Below, piece by piece: positions 3,382-63,934 of a stretch of 64,000 nucleotides of DNA. The translations under genes and the position numbers were made by a program. Positions within the stretch are counted from its first letter, which is position 1; every line of letters begins with the position of its first letter. The DNA comes from Mytilus trossulus (taxonomy: Eukaryota): assembly GCF_036588685.1 (NCBI RefSeq), contig NC_086380.1:73036001-73100000 (forward strand), written 5' to 3'. The notes beneath the pieces were generated by a model. The model worked only from the letters and a program-made list of their open reading frames with translations, was not told where the DNA came from and made no database searches.

Positions 3382-5807
3382 ATGGGTCTAATCCCATGGC
3401 GTCTAAGGAAATACACATTTCAGAAAGGAAACAAGCCATATAATAAGGGGAAAAAATACAGAAATAAGACTTTACCTGCTGAAAAAGGCAAATTTGTGAG
3501 ACTACCAAAAGACTTGTATGACTTAGTGACTAAATCTGTTCATAATAAGAATGTTCAACTCATTCCTGCCTCTACAAAATCAGCTCGCTTTCTAAGGCCG
3601 AAGCCTCCGACAAAAACAGAAGTTGAAAAATGTGCTGAAAATGAAACAAAAACAGGGTAAGAATACTTTTTTTTGTTATTAAGCTTTCAAAAATAATTAA
3701 ACTTGCTTAAAAAAGTCACTTATAAACAACTATGAAGAAAAAGGCATGTGTCTTATATGCCAATTCTTTAAATGTGACAGCTGAAGAAAATGCAAGCTAG
3801 GATAATACTTATTTTTAAATTTCTAGTCCTATATATATTTTCAAGAATTAAATAGTGCATGATTTTTATATATAATATATATAAAAACACAGGCAAAGAA
3901 AAAAATATGCACTTTTGAGAGTAAATTTGATCATTAAGCTTATTTAAAGAAAACACTATTGTAAGGGAGGTAATTCAAAATAAAATTATTTTCACCTTTC
4001 CAAAACTTAGTTTTTACAAATAAAAAACTAATTCACTTCAATTTTGGCAACATTTTTCAACTTCAGGTCAGAGAAAAATAGTTTTCGACTCCTTCGGATC
4101 AATGAACTTGAACAGATGTGGAATGAGGTTTTCATAGAACACAGAAAAATATCCCCTATGTGTACAGGGTTCATATCATGGGATTTAAGTGCAGAACAGC
4201 AAAGAGGGGCTGCCTGGAGGGAAAAGGCAAGCTGCAATAAGTGTTCTTACCATTCAAAAATGTTCAACCTTTACAATGAGGTGATCGCAAAGAAACGTGG
4301 TCGTCGAACAGCAGCTATTAATCTATCCATACAAGTCGCACTTAATCACATAGCTATCAGCACAACTGGTCTACAGAAATTATTTCTTGGTTCTAATATA
4401 CCAGCTCCTTCCACTTCAAGTATGCAACACAGTGCTAATGTTGTTTCTGAAATTATAGAAGAGTACAATCAAAAGGATTTGGTTCAGAAAAGAAAATTAC
4501 TGAAGGAAATAAACATATTAAGAGGTGATAATCCTAATATTATTAACATTCAGGCCGACGGAATGTATAATAACCCTATTTATTCCGGAATGGGTAAAAC
4601 ACCATTTCAACCAGCTACTCAATGTACGTATAACATGTTAGAAAATAATACTTATAAGCACAGTATTGTAAGCACAAGACAAGTGTCTAAGCTTTGCTCA
4701 AATAAGAGTGAACATAAAACAAAAACAAAAGTTAAATCTCACAAAGGTCACTGTTCCGCAAACATTGAAATGCATGACAGCATAGGCAGTGAGGAGCGAT
4801 GGGCTAAAGACTGCTTGTTAGACCTGAAAAATGATGGTCTGGAAGTTCAAGAAATTACCACTGACCCTGACAGCAGTGCATTTAGAGCTGCAGAGTCTCT
4901 CTTTAAAGCTGGTACAACCAATACTCAGCCAATTCATTTTCTAGATACGAGACATGTGTCCGCAAATCATAGAAATTTTATTAAAAAAATGTCAGGTCTG
5001 AAGGAAATAATGCCGGCACGATTAGTTTCAGAGAAAGATAAAATGCTAAAAAGGTTTGCATTAGATATGGCAGCACGTTGTCAGGCAGAGTACAATGCTG
5101 CCTTTGATAAATTCAATATGGACTCTGTACGGGTAAAAGTTCACCTATCATATGCATGTCATGCTATAGTTTCTTGCTATCAGGGCGATCATAATGGTTG
5201 TACAAAATATTCCCTTGTTTGTTCAAATAGGAACAGTTTGAAGACATGGACTGAAAAATCAGCTTATCTGAAAAATAACTTTAAATTAAATAAATCAGAG
5301 AACACAGCAGCATTGTTACGTGAATGCGTAAAATATCGCCTTGGACCTACCATGCTAAACTGTACATGCAAAAACACTAACACACAAAAAGCTGAAGCAA
5401 CTAACCGTGCAATACGTGCAACTGTACCTAGCAATGTAACATTTACCAGAAACTATAAAGGAAGGGTACATACAGCTATACATAACGTAAATAATGGCCC
5501 TGGAGAATCCATCGTGAAACTCTGTCAAGCGGCTGGGGTTCCCATCGAACCAGGAAGTCGTGCTGCCCATGGTCTGAAAAATATTCAACAACATAATGAA
5601 AAACATAAATCATATAAGCAGTCAAAGAAGTACACAGATCAGAGATGCTCAAAAAAACATGAACTGTATAAAATATATGATGAGCATCAAGAGGAAAAAG
5701 ACTATGAGAAAAACAAACTTTTACCGACAAAACGACTGGCCGCAAAACAACCTCAAGAGTATTCGTTTGCCAAAAAACTCCGATCAAGACATGTTAAAAA
5801 TAAATAA
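3382..5807 (+). CDS. DDD/E transposase, join(3382..3656,4067..5807), 671 aa
   Basis: ATG in ACAATGG context; donor GG|GTAAGA; branch-like CTAAT at 4028-4032; acceptor TTTTTCAACTTCAG|G. The phase-2 splice joins the 92-aa and 587-aa ORFs in frame. DDE motifs as in copy 1. Confidence 0.87.
3657..4066 (+). other. 410-bp spliceosomal GT-AG intron of the transposase gene (representative; present in every unit)
   Basis: GTAAGA...CTAAT...TTTTTCAACTTCAG, very AT-rich; removal restores the reading frame. Confidence 0.85.
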
Positions 5808-28651: not shown

Positions 28652-31077
28652 ATGGGTCTAATCCCATGGCGTCTAAGGAAATACACATTTCAGAAAGGAA
28701 ACAAGCCATATAATAAGGGGAAAAAATACAGAAATAAGACTTTACCTGCTGAAAAAGGCAAATTTGTGAGACTACCAAAAGACTTGTATGACTTAGTGAC
28801 TAAATCTGTTCATAATAAGAATGTTCAACTCATTCCTGCCTCTACAAAATCAGCTCGCTTTCTAAGGCCGAAGCCTCCGACAAAAACAGAAGTTGAAAAA
28901 TGTGCTGAAAATGAAACAAAAACAGGGTAAGAATACTTTTTTTTGTTATTAAGCTTTCAAAAATAATTAAACTTGCTTAAAAAAGTCACTTATAAACAAC
29001 TATGAAGAAAAAGGCATGTGTCTTATATGCCAATTCTTTAAATGTGACAGCTGAAGAAAATGCAAGCTAGGATAATACTTATTTTTAAATTTCTAGTCCT
29101 ATATATATTTTCAAGAATTAAATAGTGCATGATTTTTATATATAATATATATAAAAACACAGGCAAAGAAAAAAATATGCACTTTTGAGAGTAAATTTGA
29201 TCATTAAGCTTATTTAAAGAAAACACTATTGTAAGGGAGGTAATTCAAAATAAAATTATTTTCACCTTTCCAAAACTTAGTTTTTACAAATAAAAAACTA
29301 ATTCACTTCAATTTTGGCAACATTTTTCAACTTCAGGTCAGAGAAAAATAGTTTTCGACTCCTTCGGATCAATGAACTTGAACAGATGTGGAATGAGGTT
29401 TTCATAGAACACAGAAAAATATCCCCTATGTGTACAGGGTTCATATCATGGGATTTAAGTGCAGAACAGCAAAGAGGGGCTGCCTGGAGGGAAAAGGCAA
29501 GCTGCAATAAGTGTTCTTACCATTCAAAAATGTTCAACCTTTACAATGAGGTGATCGCAAAGAAACGTGGTCGTCGAACAGCAGCTATTAATCTATCCAT
29601 ACAAGTCGCACTTAATCACATAGCTATCAGCACAACTGGTCTACAGAAATTATTTCTTGGTTCTAATATACCAGCTCCTTCCACTTCAAGTATGCAACAC
29701 AGTGCTAATGTTGTTTCTGAAATTATAGAAGAGTACAATCAAAAGGATTTGGTTCAGAAAAGAAAATTACTGAAGGAAATAAACATATTAAGAGGTGATA
29801 ATCCTAATATTATTAACATTCAGGCCGACGGAATGTATAATAACCCTATTTATTCCGGAATGGGTAAAACACCATTTCAACCAGCTACTCAATGTACGTA
29901 TAACATGTTAGAAAATAATACTTATAAGCACAGTATTGTAAGCACAAGACAAGTGTCTAAGCTTTGCTCAAATAAGAGTGAACATAAAACAAAAACAAAA
30001 GTTAAATCTCACAAAGGTCACTGTTCCGCAAACATTGAAATGCATGACAGCATAGGCAGTGAGGAGCGATGGGCTAAAGACTGCTTGTTAGACCTGAAAA
30101 ATGATGGTCTGGAAGTTCAAGAAATTACCACTGACCCTGACAGCAGTGCATTTAGAGCTGCAGAGTCTCTCTTTAAAGCTGGTACAACCAATACTCAGCC
30201 AATTCATTTTCTAGATACGAGACATGTGTCCGCAAATCATAGAAATTTTATTAAAAAAATGTCAGGTCTGAAGGAAATAATGCCGGCACGATTAGTTTCA
30301 GAGAAAGATAAAATGCTAAAAAGGTTTGCATTAGATATGGCAGCACGTTGTCAGGCAGAGTACAATGCTGCCTTTGATAAATTCAATATGGACTCTGTAC
30401 GGGTAAAAGTTCACCTATCATATGCATGTCATGCTATAGTTTCTTGCTATCAGGGCGATCATAATGGTTGTACAAAATATTCCCTTGTTTGTTCAAATAG
30501 GAACAGTTTGAAGACATGGACTGAAAAATCAGCTTATCTGAAAAATAACTTTAAATTAAATAAATCAGAGAACACAGCAGCATTGTTACGTGAATGCGTA
30601 AAATATCGCCTTGGACCTACCATGCTAAACTGTACATGCAAAAACACTAACACACAAAAAGCTGAAGCAACTAACCGTGCAATACGTGCAACTGTACCTA
30701 GCAATGTAACATTTACCAGAAACTATAAAGGAAGGGTACATACAGCTATACATAACGTAAATAATGGCCCTGGAGAATCCATCGTGAAACTCTGTCAAGC
30801 GGCTGGGGTTCCCATCGAACCAGGAAGTCGTGCTGCCCATGGTCTGAAAAATATTCAACAACATAATGAAAAACATAAATCATATAAGCAGTCAAAGAAG
30901 TACACAGATCAGAGATGCTCAAAAAAACATGAACTGTATAAAATATATGATGAGCATCAAGAGGAAAAAGACTATGAGAAAAACAAACTTTTACCGACAA
31001 AACGACTGGCCGCAAAACAACCTCAAGAGTATTCGTTTGCCAAAAAACTCCGATCAAGACATGTTAAAAATAAATAA
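28652..31077 (+). CDS. DDD/E transposase, two exons (intron 28927-29336)
   Basis: Identical copy. Confidence 0.87.
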
Positions 31078-31087
31078 ATTACCTGCA

Positions 31088-31546
31088 TCAGATAAGACAA
31101 CACGGTAAATGATTATTTGTACACTGTTTTGCCCGTCTACAGAAAATTCTCTCTATGTTTATACTGTGCGACTCTAAGATCAGGTGCTCCGGTTTAATAC
31201 ATTTGGGGTTATGGCAAAGGTGTGAAATATCTAAAGGATCACCGTTTGGAGAGAAACGGGGAAGATTTTCTTTTAATATTCTTTTATCTAGCATATAAGA
31301 TAATCTGTGAGCTCTTTCAAGAGTTCTAGTGCCATCAGGCCAATTCATAACTTTTTTCCCATAGACCCCATGCTCCAAAGCTCCAACCCACACTGTACAG
31401 TCATAATTTCCATGATTTTTTTCACTTTTCTTAGACAAAGCTAAAGCCAATGCATTCCAAAATGATTCCATGTTGTTTCTGTAAAATGAAAACCCAAAAG
31501 GGGTCCGAAATTGGGATCCCAGGGAGGCTGAGGGGTGAATTCCCAT
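31088..31546 (-). CDS. His-Me finger endonuclease (LDR dimer immediately upstream)
   Basis: Identical copy. Confidence 0.9.
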   Translation of the reverse strand: MGIHPSASLGSQFRTPFGFSFYRNNMESFWNALALALSKKSEKNHGNYDCTVWVGALEHGVYGKKVMNWPDGTRTLERAHRLSYMLDKRILKENLPRFSPNGDPLDISHLCHNPKCIKPEHLILESHSINIERIFCRRAKQCTNNHLPCCLI

Positions 31547-31559
31547 TATTTACCTTATA

Positions 31560-32018
31560 GGTTGCACTTGTGTAAAACCAGCAATGCAATTTTCCATAGG
31601 AACTGCCTAAATTGCATATGCAGTCACTCTTCATTCAGGAAGTTTTGAGGAGAATGTTAGATTTCCCTGGAAAGGAGACATGCACTACTTTTTTTTGCAC
31701 TAATAAAAACATATAGCTGTGCGGCATATTTTCAAGTTTTACTGCCCTCCATTTATAAACATTGCAGGTTCGCACTGAATTTTTCCATTAAATTTGACTC
31801 AACACCCAAATGTCTTCCAGTCCTCCTGAAAAATAAGTTAAATAAATAGACATTTTTATTTATATCCATTTAATTCTCCAATCAAGTCTTAATTAAAAAA
31901 AAAAAACTTTGCATCCATGGCAACAACTATGTAAACAGTAGCAGTATTTAGTGCACATTCAATTTCTCCCCAAAAGAGGCGTGACTTGCAAATCACACGT
32001 GATTTACAAAGTGCAACC
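31560..32018 (+). mobile_element. 459-bp LDR (long direct repeat) / non-autonomous TIR module, copy 1
   Basis: Starts GGTTGCACTTGTGTAAA and ends TTTACAAAGTGCAACC (10-bp perfect TIR, extending to ~16 bp with one bulge). Flanked by TATA at 31556-31559 and 32019-32022. Absent from most unit junctions. Confidence 0.93.
31878..32001. promoter_or_regulatory. Candidate promoter motif cluster in the LDR (also in LDR copies 2 and 3)
   Basis: CCAATCA (31878-31884), RFX X-box-like GCATCCATGGCAAC (31911-31924), forkhead-like TGTAAACA (31930-31937), E-box CACGTG (31996-32001). These are motif matches only. Confidence 0.4.
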
Positions 32019-32022
32019 TATA

Positions 32023-32481
32023 GGTTGCACTTGTGTAAAACCAGCAATGCAATTTTCCATAGGAACTGCCTAAATTGCATATGCAGTCACTCTTCATTCA
32101 GGAAGTTTTGAGGAGAATGTTAGATTTCCCTGGAAAGGAGACATGCACTACTTTTTTTTGCACTAATAAAAACATATAGCTGTGCGGCATATTTTCAAGT
32201 TTTACTGCCCTCCATTTATAAACATTGCAGGTTCGCACTGAATTTTTCCATTAAATTTGACTCAACACCCAAATGTCTTCCAGTCCTCCTGAAAAATAAG
32301 TTAAATAAATAGACATTTTTATTTATATCCATTTAATTCTCCAATCAAGTCTTAATTAAAAAAAAAAAACTTTGCATCCATGGCAACAACTATGTAAACA
32401 GTAGCAGTATTTAGTGCACATTCAATTTCTCCCCAAAAGAGGCGTGACTTGCAAATCACACGTGATTTACAAAGTGCAACC
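32023..32481 (+). mobile_element. 459-bp LDR / non-autonomous TIR module, copy 2 (tandem with copy 1)
   Basis: Same sequence and orientation as 31560-32018; flanked by TATA at 32019-32022 and 32482-32485. Confidence 0.93.
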
Positions 32482-33187
32482 TATACTGTACTTTCAAACC
32501 CCTTTTAGTATCAAAATATTCTTATATTCTTGTTGTTATATATGTAAGTAATAGAAAATAATAAGTTACAATGGTAGTTTTTTCATTATTGTATTTTTAT
32601 AGTACTTCTAGTAACTATACCCTGTTTGCGGCAAGATGTGTTTTTTTCCTGTTCACTATTTTTTTTTTTTTTATGCAATTTATATTTTTTTTTGTCTACT
32701 TAATAAACTCATTATATATTTGTGTTTTTCTTGTACCTTTGTGTAATAGCTATTTGAATCATGGTTAGTTTTACTACAATCTGTTTATTTTGTAGAATTT
32801 TTGTTTTCTTTATGTACTATACCATAAAATGCATAAAAAGTTGTCATACAAGCTTCAAAAAACTATCCCTATAACAAAAACATACACCTTATCTTTACTT
32901 TCTGTTTATGTTATAGCACACAAGCCTGTCAGCACTGATAAAAAAATTCAATGAAGAGAGGTCAAATTATATGAACTTGTCAAATTACAAAATAATGAGA
33001 TTAACCATCATGATGATTTTTATATGATTTATATAAAAAATCTTACATCTGGGGTCACCTTCAGTACCATCTGATATAAACAAAAAACTTAGTCATTCAT
33101 GATTGTTTAGTTGTAAGGTCCTATATTTGTTATTTAAATATTAAAATACTGGAATAAAGTGCATTTCAAACAATTCTTACAATAACA

Positions 33188-35613
33188 ATGGGTCTAATCC
33201 CATGGCGTCTAAGGAAATACACATTTCAGAAAGGAAACAAGCCATATAATAAGGGGAAAAAATACAGAAATAAGACTTTACCTGCTGAAAAAGGCAAATT
33301 TGTGAGACTACCAAAAGACTTGTATGACTTAGTGACTAAATCTGTTCATAATAAGAATGTTCAACTCATTCCTGCCTCTACAAAATCAGCTCGCTTTCTA
33401 AGGCCGAAGCCTCCGACAAAAACAGAAGTTGAAAAATGTGCTGAAAATGAAACAAAAACAGGGTAAGAATACTTTTTTTTGTTATTAAGCTTTCAAAAAT
33501 AATTAAACTTGCTTAAAAAAGTCACTTATAAACAACTATGAAGAAAAAGGCATGTGTCTTATATGCCAATTCTTTAAATGTGACAGCTGAAGAAAATGCA
33601 AGCTAGGATAATACTTATTTTTAAATTTCTAGTCCTATATATATTTTCAAGAATTAAATAGTGCATGATTTTTATATATAATATATATAAAAACACAGGC
33701 AAAGAAAAAAATATGCACTTTTGAGAGTAAATTTGATCAAAAAGCTTATTTAAAGAAAACACTATTGTAAGGGAGGTAATTCAAAATAAAATTATTTTCA
33801 CCTTTCCAAAACTTAGTTTTTACAAATAAAAAACTAATTCACTTCAATTTTGGCAACATTTTTCAACTTCAGGTCAGAGAAAAATAGTTTTCGACTCCTT
33901 CGGATCAATGAACTTGAACAGATGTGGAATGAGGTTTTCATAGAACACAGAAAAATATCCCCTATGTGTACAGGGTTCATATCATGGGATTTAAGTGCAG
34001 AACAGCAAAGAGGGGCTGCCTGGAGGGAAAAGGCAAGCTGCAATAAGTGTTCTTACCATTCAAAAATGTTCAACCTTTACAATGAGGTGATCGCAAAGAA
34101 ACGTGGTCGTCGAACAGCAGCTATTAATCTATCCATACAAGTCGCACTTAATCACATAGCTATCAGCACAACTGGTCTACAGAAATTATTTCTTGGTTCT
34201 AATATACCAGCTCCTTCCACTTCAAGTATGCAACACAGTGCTAATGTTGTTTCTGAAATTATAGAAGAGTACAATCAAAAGGATTTGGTTCAGAAAAGAA
34301 AATTACTGAAGGAAATAAACATATTAAGAGGTGATAATCCTAATATTATTAACATTCAGGCCGACGGAATGTATAATAACCCTATTTATTCCGGAATGGG
34401 TAAAACACCATTTCAACCAGCTACTCAATGTACGTATAACATGTTAGAAAATAATACTTATAAGCACAGTATTGTAAGCACAAGACAAGTGTCTAAGCTT
34501 TGCTCAAATAAGAGTGAACATAAAACAAAAACAAAAGTTAAATCTCACAAAGGTCACTGTTCCGCAAACATTGAAATGCATGACAGCATAGGCAGTGAGG
34601 AGCGATGGGCTAAAGACTGCTTGTTAGACCTGAAAAATGATGGTCTGGAAGTTCAAGAAATTACCACTGACCCTGACAGCAGTGCATTTAGAGCTGCAGA
34701 GTCTCTCTTTAAAGCTGGTACAACCAATACTCAGCCAATTCATTTTCTAGATACGAGACATGTGTCCGCAAATCATAGAAATTTTATTAAAAAAATGTCA
34801 GGTCTGAAGGAAATAATGCCGGCACGATTAGTTTCAGAGAAAGATAAAATGCTAAAAAGGTTTGCATTAGATATGGCAGCACGTTGTCAGGCAGAGTACA
34901 ATGCTGCCTTTGATAAATTCAATATGGACTCTGTACGGGTAAAAGTTCACCTATCATATGCATGTCATGCTATAGTTTCTTGCTATCAGGGCGATCATAA
35001 TGGTTGTACAAAATATTCCCTTGTTTGTTCAAATAGGAACAGTTTGAAGACATGGACTGAAAAATCAGCTTATCTGAAAAATAACTTTAAATTAAATAAA
35101 TCAGAAAACACAGCAGCATTGTTACGTGAATGCGTAAAATATCGCCTTGGACCTACCATGCTAAACTGTACATGCAAAAACACTAACACACAAAAAGCTG
35201 AAGCAACTAACCGTGCAATACGTGCAACTGTACCTAGCAATGTAACATTTACCAGAAACTATAAAGGAAGGGTACATACAGCTATACATAACGTAAATAA
35301 TGGCCCTGGAGAATCCATCGTGAAACTCTGTCAAGCGGCTGGGGTTCCCATCGAACCAGGAAGTCGTGCTGCCCATGGTCTGAAAAATATTCAACAACAT
35401 AATGAAAAACATAAATCATATAAGCAGTCAAAGAAGTACACAGATCAGAGATGCTCAAAAAAACATGAACTGTATAAAATATATGATGAGCATCAAGAGG
35501 AAAAAGACTATGAGAAAAACAAACTTTTACCGACAAAACGACTGGCCGCAAAACAACCTCAAGAGTATTCGTTTGCCAAAAAACTCCGATCAAGACATGT
35601 TAAAAATAAATAA
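33188..35613 (+). CDS. DDD/E transposase, two exons (intron 33463-33872); directly downstream of the LDR dimer
   Basis: Same protein; synonymous GAG>GAA at 35106. Confidence 0.87.
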
Positions 35614-36797: not shown

Positions 36798-39223
36798 ATG
36801 GGTCTAATCCCATGGCGTCTAAGGAAATACACATTTCAGAAAGGAAACAAGCCATATAATAAGGGGAAAAAATACAGAAATAAGACTTTACCTGCTGAAA
36901 AAGGCAAATTTGTGAGACTACCAAAAGACTTGTATGACTTAGTGACTAAATCTGTTCATAATAAGAATGTTCAACTCATTCCTGCCTCTACAAAATCAGC
37001 TCGCTTTCTAAGGCCGAAGCCTCCGACAAAAACAGAAGTTGAAAAATGTGCTGAAAATGAAACAAAAACAGGGTAAGAATACTTTTTTTTGTTATTAAGC
37101 TTTCAAAAATAATTAAACTTGCTTAAAAAAGTCACTTATAAACAACTATGAAGAAAAAGGCATGTGTCTTATATGCCAATTCTTTAAATGTGACAGCTGA
37201 AGAAAATGCAAGCTAGGATAATACTTATTTTTAAATTTCTAGTCCTATATATATTTTCAAGAATTAAATAGTGCATGATTTTTATATATAATATATATAA
37301 AAACACAGGCAAAGAAAAAAATATGCACTTTTGAGAGTAAATTTGATCAAAAAGCTTATTTAAAGAAAACACTATTGTAAGGGAGGTAATTCAAAATAAA
37401 ATTATTTTCACCTTTCCAAAACTTAGTTTTTACAAATAAAAAACTAATTCACTTCAATTTTGGCAACATTTTTCAACTTCAGGTCAGAGAAAAATAGTTT
37501 TCGACTCCTTCGGATCAATGAACTTGAACAGATGTGGAATGAGGTTTTCATAGAACACAGAAAAATATCCCCTATGTGTACAGGGTTCATATCATGGGAT
37601 TTAAGTGCAGAACAGCAAAGAGGGGCTGCCTGGAGGGAAAAGGCAAGCTGCAATAAGTGTTCTTACCATTCAAAAATGTTCAACCTTTACAATGAGGTGA
37701 TCGCAAAGAAACGTGGTCGTCGAACAGCAGCTATTAATCTATCCATACAAGTCGCACTTAATCACATAGCTATCAGCACAACTGGTCTACAGAAATTATT
37801 TCTTGGTTCTAATATACCAGCTCCTTCCACTTCAAGTATGCAACACAGTGCTAATGTTGTTTCTGAAATTATAGAAGAGTACAATCAAAAGGATTTGGTT
37901 CAGAAAAGAAAATTACTGAAGGAAATAAACATATTAAGAGGTGATAATCCTAATATTATTAACATTCAGGCCGACGGAATGTATAATAACCCTATTTATT
38001 CCGGAATGGGTAAAACACCATTTCAACCAGCTACTCAATGTACGTATAACATGTTAGAAAATAATACTTATAAGCACAGTATTGTAAGCACAAGACAAGT
38101 GTCTAAGCTTTGCTCAAATAAGAGTGAACATAAAACAAAAACAAAAGTTAAATCTCACAAAGGTCACTGTTCCGCAAACATTGAAATGCATGACAGCATA
38201 GGCAGTGAGGAGCGATGGGCTAAAGACTGCTTGTTAGACCTGAAAAATGATGGTCTGGAAGTTCAAGAAATTACCACTGACCCTGACAGCAGTGCATTTA
38301 GAGCTGCAGAGTCTCTCTTTAAAGCTGGTACAACCAATACTCAGCCAATTCATTTTCTAGATACGAGACATGTGTCCGCAAATCATAGAAATTTTATTAA
38401 AAAAATGTCAGGTCTGAAGGAAATAATGCCGGCACGATTAGTTTCAGAGAAAGATAAAATGCTAAAAAGGTTTGCATTAGATATGGCAGCACGTTGTCAG
38501 GCAGAGTACAATGCTGCCTTTGATAAATTCAATATGGACTCTGTACGGGTAAAAGTTCACCTATCATATGCATGTCATGCTATAGTTTCTTGCTATCAGG
38601 GCGATCATAATGGTTGTACAAAATATTCCCTTGTTTGTTCAAATAGGAACAGTTTGAAGACATGGACTGAAAAATCAGCTTATCTGAAAAATAACTTTAA
38701 ATTAAATAAATCAGAGAACACAGCAGCATTGTTACGTGAATGCGTAAAATATCGCCTTGGACCTACCATGCTAAACTGTACATGCAAAAACACTAACACA
38801 CAAAAAGCTGAAGCAACTAACCGTGCAATACGTGCAACTGTACCTAGCAATGTAACATTTACCAGAAACTATAAAGGAAGGGTACATACAGCTATACATA
38901 ACGTAAATAATGGCCCTGGAGAATCCATCGTGAAACTCTGTCAAGCGGCTGGGGTTCCCATCGAACCAGGAAGTCGTGCTGCCCATGGTCTGAAAAATAT
39001 TCAACAACATAATGAAAAACATAAATCATATAAGCAGTCAAAGAAGTACACAGATCAGAGATGCTCAAAAAAACATGAACTGTATAAAATATATGATGAG
39101 CATCAAGAGGAAAAAGACTATGAGAAAAACAAACTTTTACCGACAAAACGACTGGCCGCAAAACAACCTCAAGAGTATTCGTTTGCCAAAAAACTCCGAT
39201 CAAGACATGTTAAAAATAAATAA
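36798..39223 (+). CDS. DDD/E transposase, two exons (intron 37073-37482)
   Basis: Identical protein. Confidence 0.87.
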
Positions 39224-39692: not shown

Positions 39693-39705
39693 TATTTACC
39701 TTATA

Positions 39706-40164
39706 GGTTGCACTTGTGTAAAACCAGCAATGCAATTTTCCATAGGAACTGCCTAAATTGCATATGCAGTCACTCTTCATTCAGGAAGTTTTGAGGAGAA
39801 TGTTAGATTTCCCTGGAAAGGAGACATGCACTACTTTTTTTTGCACTAATAAAAACATATAGCTGTGCGGCATATTTTCAAGTTTTACTGCCCTCCATTT
39901 ATAAACATTGCAGGTTCGCACTGAATTTTTCCATTAAATTTGACTCAACACCCAAATGTCTTCCAGTCCTCCTGAAAAATAAGTTAAATAAATAGACATT
40001 TTTATTTATATCCATTTAATTCTCCAATCAAGTCTTAATTAAAAAAAAAAAACTTTGCATCCATGGCAACAACTATGTAAACAGTAGCAGTATTTAGTGC
40101 ACATTCAATTTCTCCCCAAAAGAGGCGTGACTTGCAAATCACACGTGATTTACAAAGTGCAACC
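39706..40164 (+). mobile_element. 459-bp LDR / non-autonomous TIR module, copy 3
   Basis: Same sequence and orientation; flanked by TATA at 39702-39705 and 40165-40168, at the same unit position as copies 1-2. Confidence 0.93.
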
Positions 40165-40870
40165 TATACTGTACTTTCAAACCCCTTTTAGTATCAAAAT
40201 ATTCTTATATTCTTGTTGTTATATATGTAAGTAATAGAAAATAATAAGTTACAATGGTAGTTTTTTCATTATTGTATTTTTATAGTACTTCTAGTAACTA
40301 TACCCTGTTTGCGGCAAGATGTGTTTTTTTCCTGTTCACTATTTTTTTTTTTTTTATGCAATTTATATTTTTTTTTGTCTACTTAATAAACTCATTATAT
40401 ATTTGTGTTTTTCTTGTACCTTTGTGTAATAGCTATTTGAATCATGGTTAGTTTTACTACAATCTGTTTATTTTGTAGAATTTTTGTTTTCTTTATGTAC
40501 TATACCATAAAATGCATAAAAAGTTGTCATACAAGCTTCAAAAAACTATCCCTATAACAAAAACATACACCTTATCTTTACTTTCTGTTTATGTTATAGC
40601 ACACAAGCCTGTCAGCACTGATAAAAAAATTCAATGAAGAGAGGTCAAATTATATGAACTTGTCAAATTACAAAATAATGAGATTAACCATCATGATGAT
40701 TTTTATATGATTTATATAAAAAATCTTACATCTGGGGTCACCTTCAGTACCATCTGATATAAACAAAAAACTTAGTCATTCATGATTGTTTAGTTGTAAG
40801 GTCCTATATTTGTTATTTAAATATTAAAATACTGGAATAAAGTGCATTTCAAACAATTCTTACAATAACA

Positions 40871-43296
40871 ATGGGTCTAATCCCATGGCGTCTAAGGAAA
40901 TACACATTTCAGAAAGGAAACAAGCCATATAATAAGGGGAAAAAATACAGAAATAAGACTTTACCTGCTGAAAAAGGCAAATTTGTGAGACTACCAAAAG
41001 ACTTGTATGACTTAGTGACTAAATCTGTTCATAATAAGAATGTTCAACTCATTCCTGCCTCTACAAAATCAGCTCGCTTTCTAAGGCCGAAGCCTCCGAC
41101 AAAAACAGAAGTTGAAAAATGTGCTGAAAATGAAACAAAAACAGGGTAAGAATACTTTTTTTTGTTATTAAGCTTTCAAAAATAATTAAACTTGCTTAAA
41201 AAAGTCACTTATAAACAACTATGAAGAAAAAGGCATGTGTCTTATATGCCAATTCTTTAAATGTGACAGCTGAAGAAAATGCAAGCTAGGATAATACTTA
41301 TTTTTAAATTTCTAGTCCTATATATATTTTCAAGAATTAAATAGTGCATGATTTTTATATATAATATATATAAAAACACAGGCAAAGAAAAAAATATGCA
41401 CTTTTGAGAGTAAATTTGATCAAAAAGCTTATTTAAAGAAAACACTATTGTAAGGGAGGTAATTCAAAATAAAATTATTTTCACCTTTCCAAAACTTAGT
41501 TTTTACAAATAAAAAACTAATTCACTTCAATTTTGGCAACATTTTTCAACTTCAGGTCAGAGAAAAATAGTTTTCGACTCCTTCGGATCAATGAACTTGA
41601 ACAGATGTGGAATGAGGTTTTCATAGAACACAGAAAAATATCCCCTATGTGTACAGGGTTCATATCATGGGATTTAAGTGCAGAACAGCAAAGAGGGGCT
41701 GCCTGGAGGGAAAAGGCAAGCTGCAATAAGTGTTCTTACCATTCAAAAATGTTCAACCTTTACAATGAGGTGATCGCAAAGAAACGTGGTCGTCGAACAG
41801 CAGCTATTAATCTATCCATACAAGTCGCACTTAATCACATAGCTATCAGCACAACTGGTCTACAGAAATTATTTCTTGGTTCTAATATACCAGCTCCTTC
41901 CACTTCAAGTATGCAACACAGTGCTAATGTTGTTTCTGAAATTATAGAAGAGTACAATCAAAAGGATTTGGTTCAGAAAAGAAAATTACTGAAGGAAATA
42001 AACATATTAAGAGGTGATAATCCTAATATTATTAACATTCAGGCCGACGGAATGTATAATAACCCTATTTATTCCGGAATGGGTAAAACACCATTTCAAC
42101 CAGCTACTCAATGTACGTATAACATGTTAGAAAATAATACTTATAAGCACAGTATTGTAAGCACAAGACAAGTGTCTAAGCTTTGCTCAAATAAGAGTGA
42201 ACATAAAACAAAAACAAAAGTTAAATCTCACAAAGGTCACTGTTCCGCAAACATTGAAATGCATGACAGCATAGGCAGTGAGGAGCGATGGGCTAAAGAC
42301 TGCTTGTTAGACCTGAAAAATGATGGTCTGGAAGTTCAAGAAATTACCACTGACCCTGACAGCAGTGCATTTAGAGCTGCAGAGTCTCTCTTTAAAGCTG
42401 GTACAACCAATACTCAGCCAATTCATTTTCTAGATACGAGACATGTGTCCGCAAATCATAGAAATTTTATTAAAAAAATGTCAGGTCTGAAGGAAATAAT
42501 GCCGGCACGATTAGTTTCAGAGAAAGATAAAATGCTAAAAAGGTTTGCATTAGATATGGCAGCACGTTGTCAGGCAGAGTACAATGCTGCCTTTGATAAA
42601 TTCAATATGGACTCTGTACGGGTAAAAGTTCACCTATCATATGCATGTCATGCTATAGTTTCTTGCTATCAGGGCGATCATAATGGTTGTACAAAATATT
42701 CCCTTGTTTGTTCAAATAGGAACAGTTTGAAGACATGGACTGAAAAATCAGCTTATCTGAAAAATAACTTTAAATTAAATAAATCAGAGAACACAGCAGC
42801 ATTGTTACGTGAATGCGTAAAATATCGCCTTGGACCTACCATGCTAAACTGTACATGCAAAAACACTAACACACAAAAAGCTGAAGCAACTAACCGTGCA
42901 ATACGTGCAACTGTACCTAGCAATGTAACATTTACCAGAAACTATAAAGGAAGGGTACATACAGCTATACATAACGTAAATAATGGCCCTGGAGAATCCA
43001 TCGTGAAACTCTGTCAAGCGGCTGGGGTTCCCATCGAACCAGGAAGTCGTGCTGCCCATGGTCTGAAAAATATTCAACAACATAATGAAAAACATAAATC
43101 ATATAAGCAGTCAAAGAAGTACACAGATCAGAGATGCTCAAAAAAACATGAACTGTATAAAATATATGATGAGCATCAAGAGGAAAAAGACTATGAGAAA
43201 AACAAACTTTTACCGACAAAACGACTGGCCGCAAAACAACCTCAAGAGTATTCGTTTGCCAAAAAACTCCGATCAAGACATGTTAAAAATAAATAA
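40871..43296 (+). CDS. DDD/E transposase, two exons (intron 41146-41555); directly downstream of LDR copy 3
   Basis: Identical protein. Confidence 0.87.
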
Positions 43297-48089: not shown

Positions 48090-50005
48090 ATGGGTCTAAT
48101 CCCATGGCGTCTAAGGAAATACACATTTCAGAAAGGAAACAAGCCATATAATAAGGGGAAAAAATACAGAAATAAGACTTTACCTGCTGAAAAAGGCAAA
48201 TTTGTGAGACTACCAAAAGACTTGTATGACTTAGTGACTAAATCTGTTCATAATAAGAATGTTCAACTCATTCCTGCCTCTACAAAATCAGCTCGCTTTC
48301 TAAGGCCGAAGCCTCCGACAAAAACAGAAGTTGAAAAATGTGCTGAAAATGAAACAAAAACAGGGTAAGAATACTTTTTTTTGTTATTAAGCTTTCAAAA
48401 ATAATTAAACTTGCTTAAAAAAGTCACTTATAAACAACTATGAAGAAAAAGGCATGTGTCTTATATGCCAATTCTTTAAATGTGACAGCTGAAGAAAATG
48501 CAAGCTAGGATAATACTTATTTTTAAATTTCTAGTCCTATATATATTTTCAAGAATTAAATAGTGCATGATTTTTATATATAATATATATAAAAACACAG
48601 GCAAAGAAAAAAATATGCACTTTTGAGAGTAAATTTGATCAAAAAGCTTATTTAAAGAAAACACTATTGTAAGGGAGGTAATTCAAAATAAAATTATTTT
48701 CACCTTTCCAAAACTTAGTTTTTACAAATAAAAAACTAATTCACTTCAATTTTGGCAACATTTTTCAACTTCAGGTCAGAGAAAAATAGTTTTCGACTCC
48801 TTCGGATCAATGAACTTGAACAGATGTGGAATGAGGTTTTCATAGAACACAGAAAAATATCCCCTATGTGTACAGGGTTCATATCATGGGATTTAAGTGC
48901 AGAACAGCAAAGAGGGGCTGCCTGGAGGGAAAAGGCAAGCTGCAATAAGTGTTCTTACCATTCAAAAATGTTCAACCTTTACAATGAGGTGATCGCAAAG
49001 AAACGTGGTCGTCGAACAGCAGCTATTAATCTATCCATACAAGTCGCACTTAATCACATAGCTATCAGCACAACTGGTCTACAGAAATTATTTCTTGGTT
49101 CTAATATACCAGCTCTTTCCACTTCAAGTATGCAACACAGTGCTAATGTTGTTTCTGAAATTATAGAAGAGTACAATCAAAAGGATTTGGTTCAGAAAAG
49201 AAAATTACTGAAGGAAATAAACATATTAAGAGGTGATAATCCTAATATTATTAACATTCAGGCCGACGGAATGTATAATAACCCTATTTATTCCGGAATG
49301 GGTAAAACACCATTTCAACCAGCTACTCAATGTACGTATAACATGTTAGAAAATAATACTTATAAGCACAGTATTGTAAGCACAAGACAAGTGTCTAAGC
49401 TTTGCTCAAATAAGAGTGAACATAAAACAAAAACAAAAGTTAAATCTCACAAAGGTCACTGTTCCGCAAACATTGAAATGCATGACAGCATAGGCAGTGA
49501 GGAGCGATGGGCTAAAGACTGCTTGTTAGACCTGAAAAATGATGGTCTGGAAGTTCAAGAAATTACCACTGACCCTGACAGCAGTGCATTTAGAGCTGCA
49601 GAGTCTCTCTTTAAAGCTGGTACAACCAATACTCAGCCAATTCATTTTCTAGATACGAGACATGTGTCCGCAAATCATAGAAATTTTATTAAAAAAATGT
49701 CAGGTCTGAAGGAAATAATGCCGGCACGATTAGTTTCAGAGAAAGATAAAATGCTAAAAAGGTTTGCATTAGATATGGCAGCACGTTGTCAGGCAGAGTA
49801 CAATGCTGCCTTTGATAAATTCAATATGGACTCTGTACGGGTAAAAGTTCACCTATCATATGCATGTCATGCTATAGTTTCTTGCTATCAGGGCGATCAT
49901 AATGGTTGTACAAAATATTCCCTTGTTTGTTCAAATAGGAACAGTTTGAAGACATGGACTGAAAAATCAGCTTATCTGAAAAATAACTTTAAATTAAATA
50001 AATCA
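48090..50005 (+). CDS. DDD/E transposase, 3' end lost in the assembly gap (intron 48365-48774)
   Basis: Matches other copies up to the N-run; CCT>CTT (P>L) at 49116. Confidence 0.8.
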
Positions 50006-50105
50006 NNNNNNNNNNNNNNNNNNNNNNNNNNNNNNNNNNNNNNNNNNNNNNNNNNNNNNNNNNNNNNNNNNNNNNNNNNNNNNNNNNNNNNNNNNNNNNN
50101 NNNNN
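50006..50105. other. Assembly gap (100 N, unknown true size)
   Basis: Run of exactly 100 n; the same repeat lies on both sides in the same orientation but at different unit positions. Confidence 0.99.
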
Positions 50106-61508: not shown

Positions 61509-63934
61509 ATGGGTCTAATCCCATGGCGTCTAAGGAAATACACATTACAGAAAGGAAACAAGCCATATAATAAGGGGAAAAAATACAGAAATAAGACTTT
61601 ACCTGCTGAAAAAGGCAAATTTGTGAGACTACCAAAAGACTTGTATGACTTAGTGACTAAATCTGTTCATAATAAGAATGTTCAACTCATTCCTGCCTCT
61701 ACAAAATCAGCTCGCTTTCTAAGGCCGAAGCCTCCGACAAAAACAGAAGTTGAAAAATGTGCTGAAAATGAAACAAAAACAGGGTAAGAATACTTTTTTT
61801 TGTTATTAAGCTTTCAAAAATAATTAAACTTGCTTAAAAAAGTCACTTATAAACAACTATGAAGAAAAAGGCATGTGTCTTATATGCCAATTCTTTAAAT
61901 GTGACAGCTGAAGAAAATGCAAGCTAGGATAATACTTATTTTTAAATTTCTAGTCCTATATATATTTTCAAGAATTAAATAGTGCATGATTTTTATATAT
62001 AATATATATAAAAACACAGGCAAAGAAAAAAATATGCACTTTTGAGAGTAAATTTGATCAAAAAGCTTATTTAAAGAAAACACTATTGTAAGGGAGGTAA
62101 TTCAAAATAAAATTATTTTCACCTTTCCAAAACTTAGTTTTTACAAATAAAAAACTAATTCACTTCAATTTTGGCAACATTTTTCAACTTCAGGTCAGAG
62201 AAAAATAGTTTTCGACTCCTTCGGATCAATGAACTTGAACAGATGTGGAATGAGGTTTTCATAGAACACAGAAAAATATCCCCTATGTGTACAGGGTTCA
62301 TATCATGGGATTTAAGTGCAGAACAGCAAAGAGGGGCTGCCTGGAGGGAAAAGGCAAGCTGCAATAAGTGTTCTTACCATTCAAAAATGTTCAACCTTTA
62401 CAATGAGGTGATCGCAAAGAAACGTGGTCGTCGAACAGCAGCTATTAATCTATCCATACAAGTCGCACTTAATCACATAGCTATCAGCACAACTGGTCTA
62501 CAGAAATTATTTCTTGGTTCTAATATACCAGCTCCTTCCACTTCAAGTATGCAACACAGTGCTAATGTTGTTTCTGAAATTATAGAAGAGTACAATCAAA
62601 AGGATTTGGTTCAGAAAAGAAAATTACTGAAGGAAATAAACATATTAAGAGGTGATAATCCTAATATTATTAACATTCAGGCCGACGGAATGTATAATAA
62701 CCCTATTTATTCCGGAATGGGTAAAACACCATTTCAACCAGCTACTCAATGTACGTATAACATGTTAGAAAATAATACTTATAAGCACAGTATTGTAAGC
62801 ACAAGACAAGTGTCTAAGCTTTGCTCAAATAAGAGTGAACATAAAACAAAAACAAAAGTTAAATCTCACAAAGGTCACTGTTCCGCAAACATTGAAATGC
62901 ATGACAGCATAGGCAGTGAGGAGCGATGGGCTAAAGACTGCTTGTTAGACCTGAAAAATGATGGTCTGGAAGTTCAAGAAATTACCACTGACCCTGACAG
63001 CAGTGCATTTAGAGCTGCAGAGTCTCTCTTTAAAGCTGGTACAACCAATACTCAGCCAATTCATTTTCTAGATACGAGACATGTGTCCGCAAATCATAGA
63101 AATTTTATTAAAAAAATGTCAGGTCTGAAGGAAATAATGCCGGCACGATTAGTTTCAGAGAAAGATAAAATGCTAAAAAGGTTTGCATTAGATATGGCAG
63201 CACGTTGTCAGGCAGAGTACAATGCTGCCTTTGATAAATTCAATATGGACTCTGTACGGGTAAAAGTTCACCTATCATATGCATGTCATGCTATAGTTTC
63301 TTGCTATCAGGGCGATCATAATGGTTGTACAAAATATTCCCTTGTTTGTTCAAATAGGAACAGTTTGAAGACATGGACTGAAAAATCAGCTTATCTGAAA
63401 AATAACTTTAAATTAAATAAATCAGAGAACACAGCAGCATTGTTACGTGAATGCGTAAAATATCGCCTTGGACCTACCATGCTAAACTGTACATGCAAAA
63501 ACACTAACACACAAAAAGCTGAAGCAACTAACCGTGCAATACGTGCAACTGTACCTAGCAATGTAACATTTACCAGAAACTATAAAGGAAGGGTACATAC
63601 AGCTATACATAACGTAAATAATGGCCCTGGAGAATCCATCGTGAAACTCTGTCAAGCGGCTGGGGTTCCCATCGAACCAGGAAGTCGTGCTGCCCATGGT
63701 CTGAAAAATATTCAACAACATAATGAAAAACATAAATCATATAAGCAGTCAAAGAAGTACACAGATCAGAGATGCTCAAAAAAACATGAACTGTATAAAA
63801 TATATGATGAGCATCAAGAGGAAAAAGACTATGAGAAAAACAAACTTTTACCGACAAAACGACTGGCCGCAAAACAACCTCAAGAGTATTCGTTTGCCAA
63901 AAAACTCCGATCAAGACATGTTAAAAATAAATAA
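61509..63934 (+). CDS. DDD/E transposase, two exons (intron 61784-62193)
   Basis: Same protein except F13L (TTT>TTA at 61547). Confidence 0.87.

Follow-up and report, generated by a model that had tools for sequence, protein, structure and literature searches.

The subject of this analysis is a 64,000-nucleotide stretch of the Mytilus trossulus genome (assembly GCF_036588685.1, contig NC_086380.1, positions 73,036,001 to 73,100,000 of the forward strand; hereafter the window, from whose first letter positions are counted), which is filled by copies of a known DNA transposon, KolobokP of the Kolobok superfamily. We propose that the long terminal direct repeat (LTDR) of this element provides a 272-nt minus-strand exon, spliced over the nuclease gene of the element into exons antisense to its transposase, and that the LTDR likely also acts as the minus-strand promoter; we put the probability of this reading at about 0.55. 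KolobokP was described by Kojima and Bao 2022 (PMC9587614), and its LTDR is the repeat that an earlier note on this DNA had called the LDR. The element is therefore known; the novelty lies in its transcript anatomy, with an exon in the LTDR and a nuclease that is skipped.

A single tandem array, of 3610-bp period and >99.9% identity, fills the whole window; it extends past both window ends and holds at least 17 units. Sixteen junctions between units are readable, 14 of them empty (a single TATA) and two filled with LTDR, doubled in one case (31560-32481) and single in the other (39706-40164). One further junction lies in or at a 100-N gap (50006-50105), which breaks one unit and makes the true unit count uncertain. 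The features on which the argument rests are as follows.

31560 to 32018, no strand assigned: LTDR copy 1, 459 bp, about 5 substitutions by eye from KolobokP-5_MyEd-LTDR.
32023 to 32481, no strand assigned: LTDR copy 2, identical, linked to copy 1 via one TATA.
39706 to 40164, no strand assigned: LTDR copy 3, single, the reference copy for the RNA runs.
31088 to 31471, minus strand: His-Me finger (His-Cys box) nuclease open reading frame, 127 aa, PF05551 with E 1.7e-15.
33188 to 35613, plus strand: DDD/E transposase, 671 aa, PF20700 with E 3.9e-46, predicted intron 33463-33872.

The three LTDR copies are identical, with GG..CC ends, 10-bp perfect inverted ends and TATA on both sides. KolobokP is defined by LTDRs of ~450 or 660 bp that flank an internal region (INT) and carry short terminal inverted repeats (TIRs) of their own and RR..YY ends, and the 459-bp copies agree with this, as does the TIR length of 10 given for KolobokP-5_MyEd in Table S1 (PMC9587614). 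The genes agree as well, with a direct-strand DDD/E transposase carrying the C/DxxH motif (here D385xxH388, in a PF20700 domain) and, downstream on the complementary strand, a His-Me finger nuclease (PF05551). The transposase residues D256, D358, D385xxH388 and E535 were placed by eye against the supplement alignment; Cys and His residues after the first catalytic D are candidates for the CCHC zinc finger that KolobokP has there. Comparisons with other KolobokP families, here and below, were made by eye on a few printed passages of the supplement. By this measure the repeat and the start of the INT match KolobokP-5_MyEd and KolobokP-3_MyCo, with the LTDR ~99% identical, and the nuclease core is nearly identical to that of KolobokP_5_MyEd. 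With these two families the array shares an INT bounded by TATA, multimers, and INT-INT junctions with one TATA; it differs in having 17 units or more and in that all but two of its 16 readable junctions are empty, whereas the longest INT-INT run in the text of PMC9587614 is (INT)4.

The nuclease (minus strand) and the transposase (plus strand) diverge from the TATA junction. This had been claimed in the earlier note, whose coordinates for the LTDR, the genes, the donor and the motifs also proved correct. The nuclease copies beside an LTDR run from ATG 31471 to 31088 and from ATG 39617 to 39234, and the transposase copies beside an LTDR start at ATG 33188 and 40871 on the plus strand. Both gene frames are intact in 14 of the 14 complete units checked, a count that omits the N-gap unit and both units cut by the window ends.

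The evidence for the exon comes from assembled sequencing runs, eight of the 21 listed and from eight studies, seven of them of RNA type and one (X17) unlabelled and DNA-like. Joints and contigs were counted among the pieces listed; contigs drop rare forms, and depth was not used for ranking genes. Five kinds of joint were found, all with CT..AC ends (GT-AG on the minus strand) and with the same sites reused, which connect the following exons.

31554 to 31825 (39700-39971 in copy 3), minus strand: exon B, 272 nt, made up of the left portion of the LTDR, the TATA and 2 nt of INT.
30744 to 30843 (38890-38989), minus strand: exon C, 100 nt, antisense to the 3' part of the transposase, from joints.
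29521 to 29716 (37667-37862; next copy 34057-34252), minus strand: exon A, 196 nt, antisense to the transposase, from joints.
33282 to 33440 (40965-41123), minus strand: an optional exon, D, of 159 nt, antisense to transposase exon 1, from a donor joint in X1 and an X16 contig that begins at 41123.

The B-C joint is present in five of the seven RNA-type runs (X1, X2, X8, X11, X16), from five studies, the A-B joint in four of the seven and the D-B joint in one. The C-A joint occurs in two of the three RNA-type runs of one batch, with one contig having 101 nt on its shorter side; for the other batch no C-A joint is listed, though contig ends fit one. The resulting minus-strand order is B (LTDR) - C - A - (D) - B of the next LTDR. 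Exon B has its acceptor inside the LTDR and its donor, AAG|GTAAAT, 2 bp inside the INT, and every time this donor is used LTDR sequence lies upstream. We ranked splice sites by a crude score of our own (233 GT and 218 AG on the minus strand in ~4130 positions), and this donor ties first among the GT sites. The earlier note had proposed it as the first donor of the nuclease, with the first exon across the junction, in the LTDR where one is present. The use of the donor from the LTDR is borne out in the five runs with the B-C joint, but the product skips the nuclease, as the B-C splice removes a 710-nt intron that contains the entire nuclease frame. In X1 and X2 the empty-junction contigs are unspliced, and the spliced donor goes with LTDR sequence. 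X17 has one unspliced 4103-nt contig round the unit and none of the joints. Deleted DNA copies are an unlikely source of the joints given their GT-AG ends, their shared sites and their absence from X17 (the single DNA-like run). No frame of more than 60 codons is present in the spliced RNA in five exon orders without the nuclease exon, and the idea of a hidden protein was rejected on this ground. KolobokP transcription is not described in the literature searched (further papers on bivalve or Kolobok transcripts being judged by title): promoter and expression have no mention in PMC9587614, and the part of a 2026 review available to us (PMC13565253) adds nothing on the subject.

The case for a promoter rests on the nuclease gene. 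Its start M is invariant in nine of nine aligned proteins, and because only 88 bp of INT precede this conserved ATG, the LTDR likely holds the promoter of the minus-strand unit. In 4_MyCo, 8_MyEd and 4_MyEd the ATG likewise lies ~90-95 nt from the INT end, with an acceptor-like site ~40 nt in that no donor precedes within the INT. Two further features are predicted around the gene.

31479 to 31553, minus strand: predicted 75-nt intron before the nuclease, its donor used, its acceptor not seen used.
31083 to 31478, minus strand: predicted 396-nt nuclease cassette exon, with a donor 5 nt past the stop.

The 75-nt intron that would give a nuclease mRNA was found in none of the eight runs. From an upstream ATG the nuclease frame stays open across this supposed short intron, so the reading frame needs no splicing; the 26-residue upstream extension of the nuclease was dropped as a candidate, being unconserved in relatives. 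In P0002, a 66% identical relative, the called frame starts inside the LTDR, crosses the junction and has the same terminal peptide pattern, and the junction layout seems to be shared. The acceptor of the predicted nuclease exon ranks 10th of 218 and the donor 5 nt after the stop ties first of 233; the sister families 4_MyCo and 8_MyEd have another, different donor 6 nt past their nuclease stop.

A mechanism can be outlined from these parts. The unit would be the nuclease gene's own transcription unit, running from LTDR to LTDR, in which the predicted 396-nt nuclease exon would be a cassette that is usually skipped. Under the 50-nt rule, a stop well upstream of later exon junctions invites decay of the RNA. 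In the included form as modelled the stop falls at 663 and the junctions after it at 668, 768 and 964, and exon B holds nine ATGs; a start at the last one would lengthen the nuclease to 144 residues. The early stop and the upstream ATGs in exon B might then hold the nuclease down by splicing and decay, a restraint that would apply with or without an LTDR. The skipped RNA would serve as a built-in antisense to the transposase, and a unit that lost an LTDR would be without exon B and probably without its local promoter.

Several points weigh against this proposal. All runs are assembled contigs, which cannot show strand, start or level; only X13 is recorded as RNA, the type of the other six being guessed; and they derive from other individuals and other copies, not from this array. 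The nuclease exon is spliced in in none of the seven RNA-type runs, an A-C joint that bypasses the LTDR exon is present in two of them (X13, X11), and X3 has no spliced joint. (Holes in X3 at exons A and C prove nothing.) In 3_MyGa the post-stop donor is a weak one, and in 4_MyEd none is evident. Since exon B comes with an acceptor of its own, it could also be an internal or last exon, and use of the LTDR exon may for this reason be due to exon definition instead of a promoter. Cryptic acceptors are to be expected on the antisense strand, which is T-rich, and foreign sequence meets the exon boundaries in X11 (37864, 40965) and X2 (39975). Lastly, X13 and X8 have deep, unspliced and unstranded contigs over the LTDR and ~190 bp of INT, which end at 40352 and 40329, at a T-run near AATAAA 40385 and TATAAAT 40367; these fit plus-strand RNA ended at the AATAAA, and equally minus-strand RNA that starts in the INT behind the TATAAAT.

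The alternative that survives best, though we consider it unlikely, is host read-through, in which antisense copies within host introns or precursor loci of PIWI-interacting RNAs (piRNAs) undergo cryptic splicing with no special promoter in the LTDR. The foreign sequence at the exon boundaries of X11 and X2 suggests host transcripts splicing in and out of the element; exons C and A lie within the transposase coding strand, whose T-rich antisense offers many acceptors, and the acceptor of exon C ranks only 31st of 218. Kolobok elements are also enriched in snail piRNA clusters, according to the available part of PMC6128900. Against read-through, the same joints recur across six studies in copies ~97% identical, and the X16 contigs listed close a B-C-A cycle with no loose end. 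Loose ends with host flanks are found at the left end of the LTDR in four of the seven RNA-type runs, but at the right end, where transcripts would read in, in only one. The nuclease would moreover still need a promoter, and a monomer offers it the 88 bp of INT only.

More doubtful is the idea of the earlier note, in which the LTDR drives both genes as a two-way promoter and its excision by the transposase silences them as negative feedback. The gene geometry holds, the INT donor is used with the LTDR upstream, and LTDR excision is strongly suggested in the describing paper, where multimers and one-TATA INT-INT junctions were already published (PMC9587614). The deep contigs of X13 and X8 could, furthermore, be plus-strand LTDR RNA ended early near the AATAAA, and a cluster of motifs occupies the LTDR's right end. 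The sites in question are these.

32341 to 32464, plus strand: candidate promoter motifs grouped at the LTDR right end, with CCAAT 32341, X-box-like 32374, GTAAACA 32394, GC/KLF-like 32440 and CACGTG 32459.
32544 to 32549, plus strand: GTAAGT donor-like site, not seen used and crossed by unspliced contigs.
32678 to 32707, no strand assigned: candidate TATAAAT 32684-32678 (minus strand) and AATAAA 32702-32707 (plus strand), beside the T-run, a weak hint.

Sixteen motif patterns, chosen after the fact, were tried. CCAAT is at chance level (P 0.82, 1000 dinucleotide shuffles), has no NF-Y context even with one mismatch, and was rejected as promoter evidence; GTAAACA gives P 0.11. The X-box-like site has two mismatches to the consensus and P 0.023 (300 shuffles), CACGTG has P 0.017 and the GC-box-like site P near 0.02. 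Sister LTDRs carry other promoter-type motifs at the same end (CCAAT, GGGCGG, TGACGT), but the X-box-like site and CACGTG are not evident by eye in those of 4_MyCo and 8_MyEd. The CCAAT, X-box-like, forkhead-like and E-box motifs that had been pointed out in the LTDR are present, but CCAAT is as frequent as chance predicts, and the X-box-like and E-box motifs, themselves weak, were singled out afterwards. The suggestion that RFX and forkhead sites point to ciliated or sperm-lineage expression finds no support, given the two mismatches in the X-box and its failure to appear in those two sister LTDRs.

No plus-strand splice, including the transposase intron and the donor ~58 bp into the INT, is listed in any of the eight runs, which weighs against the two-way model, although contigs drop rare forms and so cannot prove absence. 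The latter donor had been called perfect. Its position is right (2738-2743 in unit 1), but its exon side reads TAT, leaving it perfect on the intron side only, and it is crossed unspliced. It overlaps (at 40221-40232) a motif, TTATGTAA, which is kept by eye in 3_MyCo, 5_MyEd, 4_MyCo and 8_MyEd and in which the window copies carry a change; this motif could be a bZIP-type (basic leucine zipper) site instead of a donor. On the other strand, the spliced RNA skips the nuclease even with the LTDR present.

The feedback part of this switch also meets difficulty, as no datum ties excision to transposase level and the empty units are clonal at least in part. Empty junctions are not an assembly artefact, being present in three of eight independent runs and in PMC9587614. 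A TT-for-AA variant in the transposase intron is common to eight adjacent empty units (3934-3935 through 29205), which points to recent local amplification of one empty unit, not repeated excision. Because eight neighbouring units carry the same 2-nt variant, at least these empty junctions stem from the copying of one unit, and the empty units are better read as an amplified LTDR-less unit than as a regulated feedback state. The single-nucleotide polymorphism at 35106, put forward as a private marker of an LTDR-adjacent transposase, is genuine, confined to one unit and synonymous. It tracks only one of the two such genes, since the LTDR-adjacent transposase at 40871 is identical to those of the empty-junction units. 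At the counterpart place, 38716, no variant appears among the rows listed, and these come from runs of other animals and are hence uninformative.

A modified form of the switch, to which we give a similarly low probability, would make the LTDR a removable two-way promoter with both outputs throttled after initiation. Its minus-strand RNA would skip the nuclease exon and turn into an antisense to the transposase, and its plus-strand RNA would end early, at a poly(A) site lying 220 bp inside the INT, if the weak donor did not splice past it; excision driven by the transposase would silence the unit, giving arrays of genes that are intact yet silent, and an LTDR landing in a TATA junction would re-activate it.

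Another improbable option concerns the form of the RNA, which could consist of circles made by back-splicing (568-nt B-C-A and 296-nt C-A). In a monomer the A-C joint would be a back-splice; X13, from a random-primed library, and X11 both have this joint, and X16 closes the cycle. Tandem arrays and linear LTDR-to-LTDR RNA yield the same joints, however, and circles account for the form of the RNA and not for where transcription starts. Least probable of all is that promoters lie inside the INT (on the minus strand near TATAAAT 32684-32678, across the junction), with empty junctions transcribed too and the LTDR a passenger exon or recombination unit: the deep contigs of X13 and X8 do end ~10-30 nt past the minus-strand TATAAAT, and unspliced contigs do span empty junctions in three of the eight runs (X1, X2, X3), but none of the runs lists a joint that links the INT 5' end with exon C, the contigs stop at an assembly-breaking T-run, those over empty junctions have background depth and may be DNA, and TATAWAW is common, with 25 occurrences in the INT.

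Some further observations concern the array and the repeat. The double LTDR is found in none of the eight runs; it could be peculiar to this animal or result from misassembly. Its LTDR-LTDR junction (32009-32032) is a 24-bp perfect palindrome centred on TATA; this junction is not among the structures described in the available part of PMC9587614, where abutted LTDR ends are a structure proposed for circles and as a possible nuclease target. Two single-unit variants fall in the transposase, one at 49116 that changes Pro206 to Leu in one copy and one at 61547, in exon 1 of the last unit. The likeness of the LTDR to the start of the INT is not above that of shuffles (132/200). TGCGGC lies ~160 bp into the LTDR (39866) and ~145 bp into the INT (36237), is found by eye at comparable positions in sister families and may be a protein-binding site, and two related X-box-like 14-mers near the LTDR ends (39736-39749, 40057-40070) could be transposase subterminal sites. 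A metagenome scan gave one locus, 98% identical and unspliced, and a viral scan a single 12-residue match at chance level, which was dropped.

The describing paper left open how the transposon tolerates an intact homing-type nuclease and why the terminal repeats are kept. The RNA data offer a first testable answer, in which the repeat serves as an exon and the prevalent RNA omits the nuclease and is antisense to the transposase. If both the promoter and the excision are true, this would be a eukaryotic transposon that switches its own genes by moving its end repeat; if false, it would be ordinary antisense splicing through a transposon, of specialist interest.

Among known systems, KolobokP may work like MuDR of maize, in which terminal repeats hold promoters for two convergent genes and antisense RNA is found (available part of PMC3440606), and for which an outward promoter is reported (available part of bioRxiv 10.1101/2023.06.05.543741). 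The MuDR repeats are inverted and not excised alone, whereas those of KolobokP are direct repeats with their own TIRs; the second KolobokP gene, unlike that of MuDR, is a homing-type nuclease, and the promoter is an inferred one. In human T-cell leukaemia virus type 1 (HTLV-1), the HBZ gene is expressed as a spliced RNA from the 3' long terminal repeat (LTR), antisense to the main genes, and encodes a protein. KolobokP resembles HBZ in that a direct terminal repeat takes part in a spliced antisense RNA (as the first exon in the LTR case), and differs from it in having no reverse transcriptase and an RNA with no frame of more than 60 codons. In bacterial composite transposons, the flanking insertion sequences supply promoters. 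As in these, the flanking units of KolobokP are mobile, can leave and may carry a promoter for the internal genes, and a structural comparison with composite transposons was drawn in PMC9587614. In contrast to them, the transposase of KolobokP is internal and its flanking unit is noncoding.

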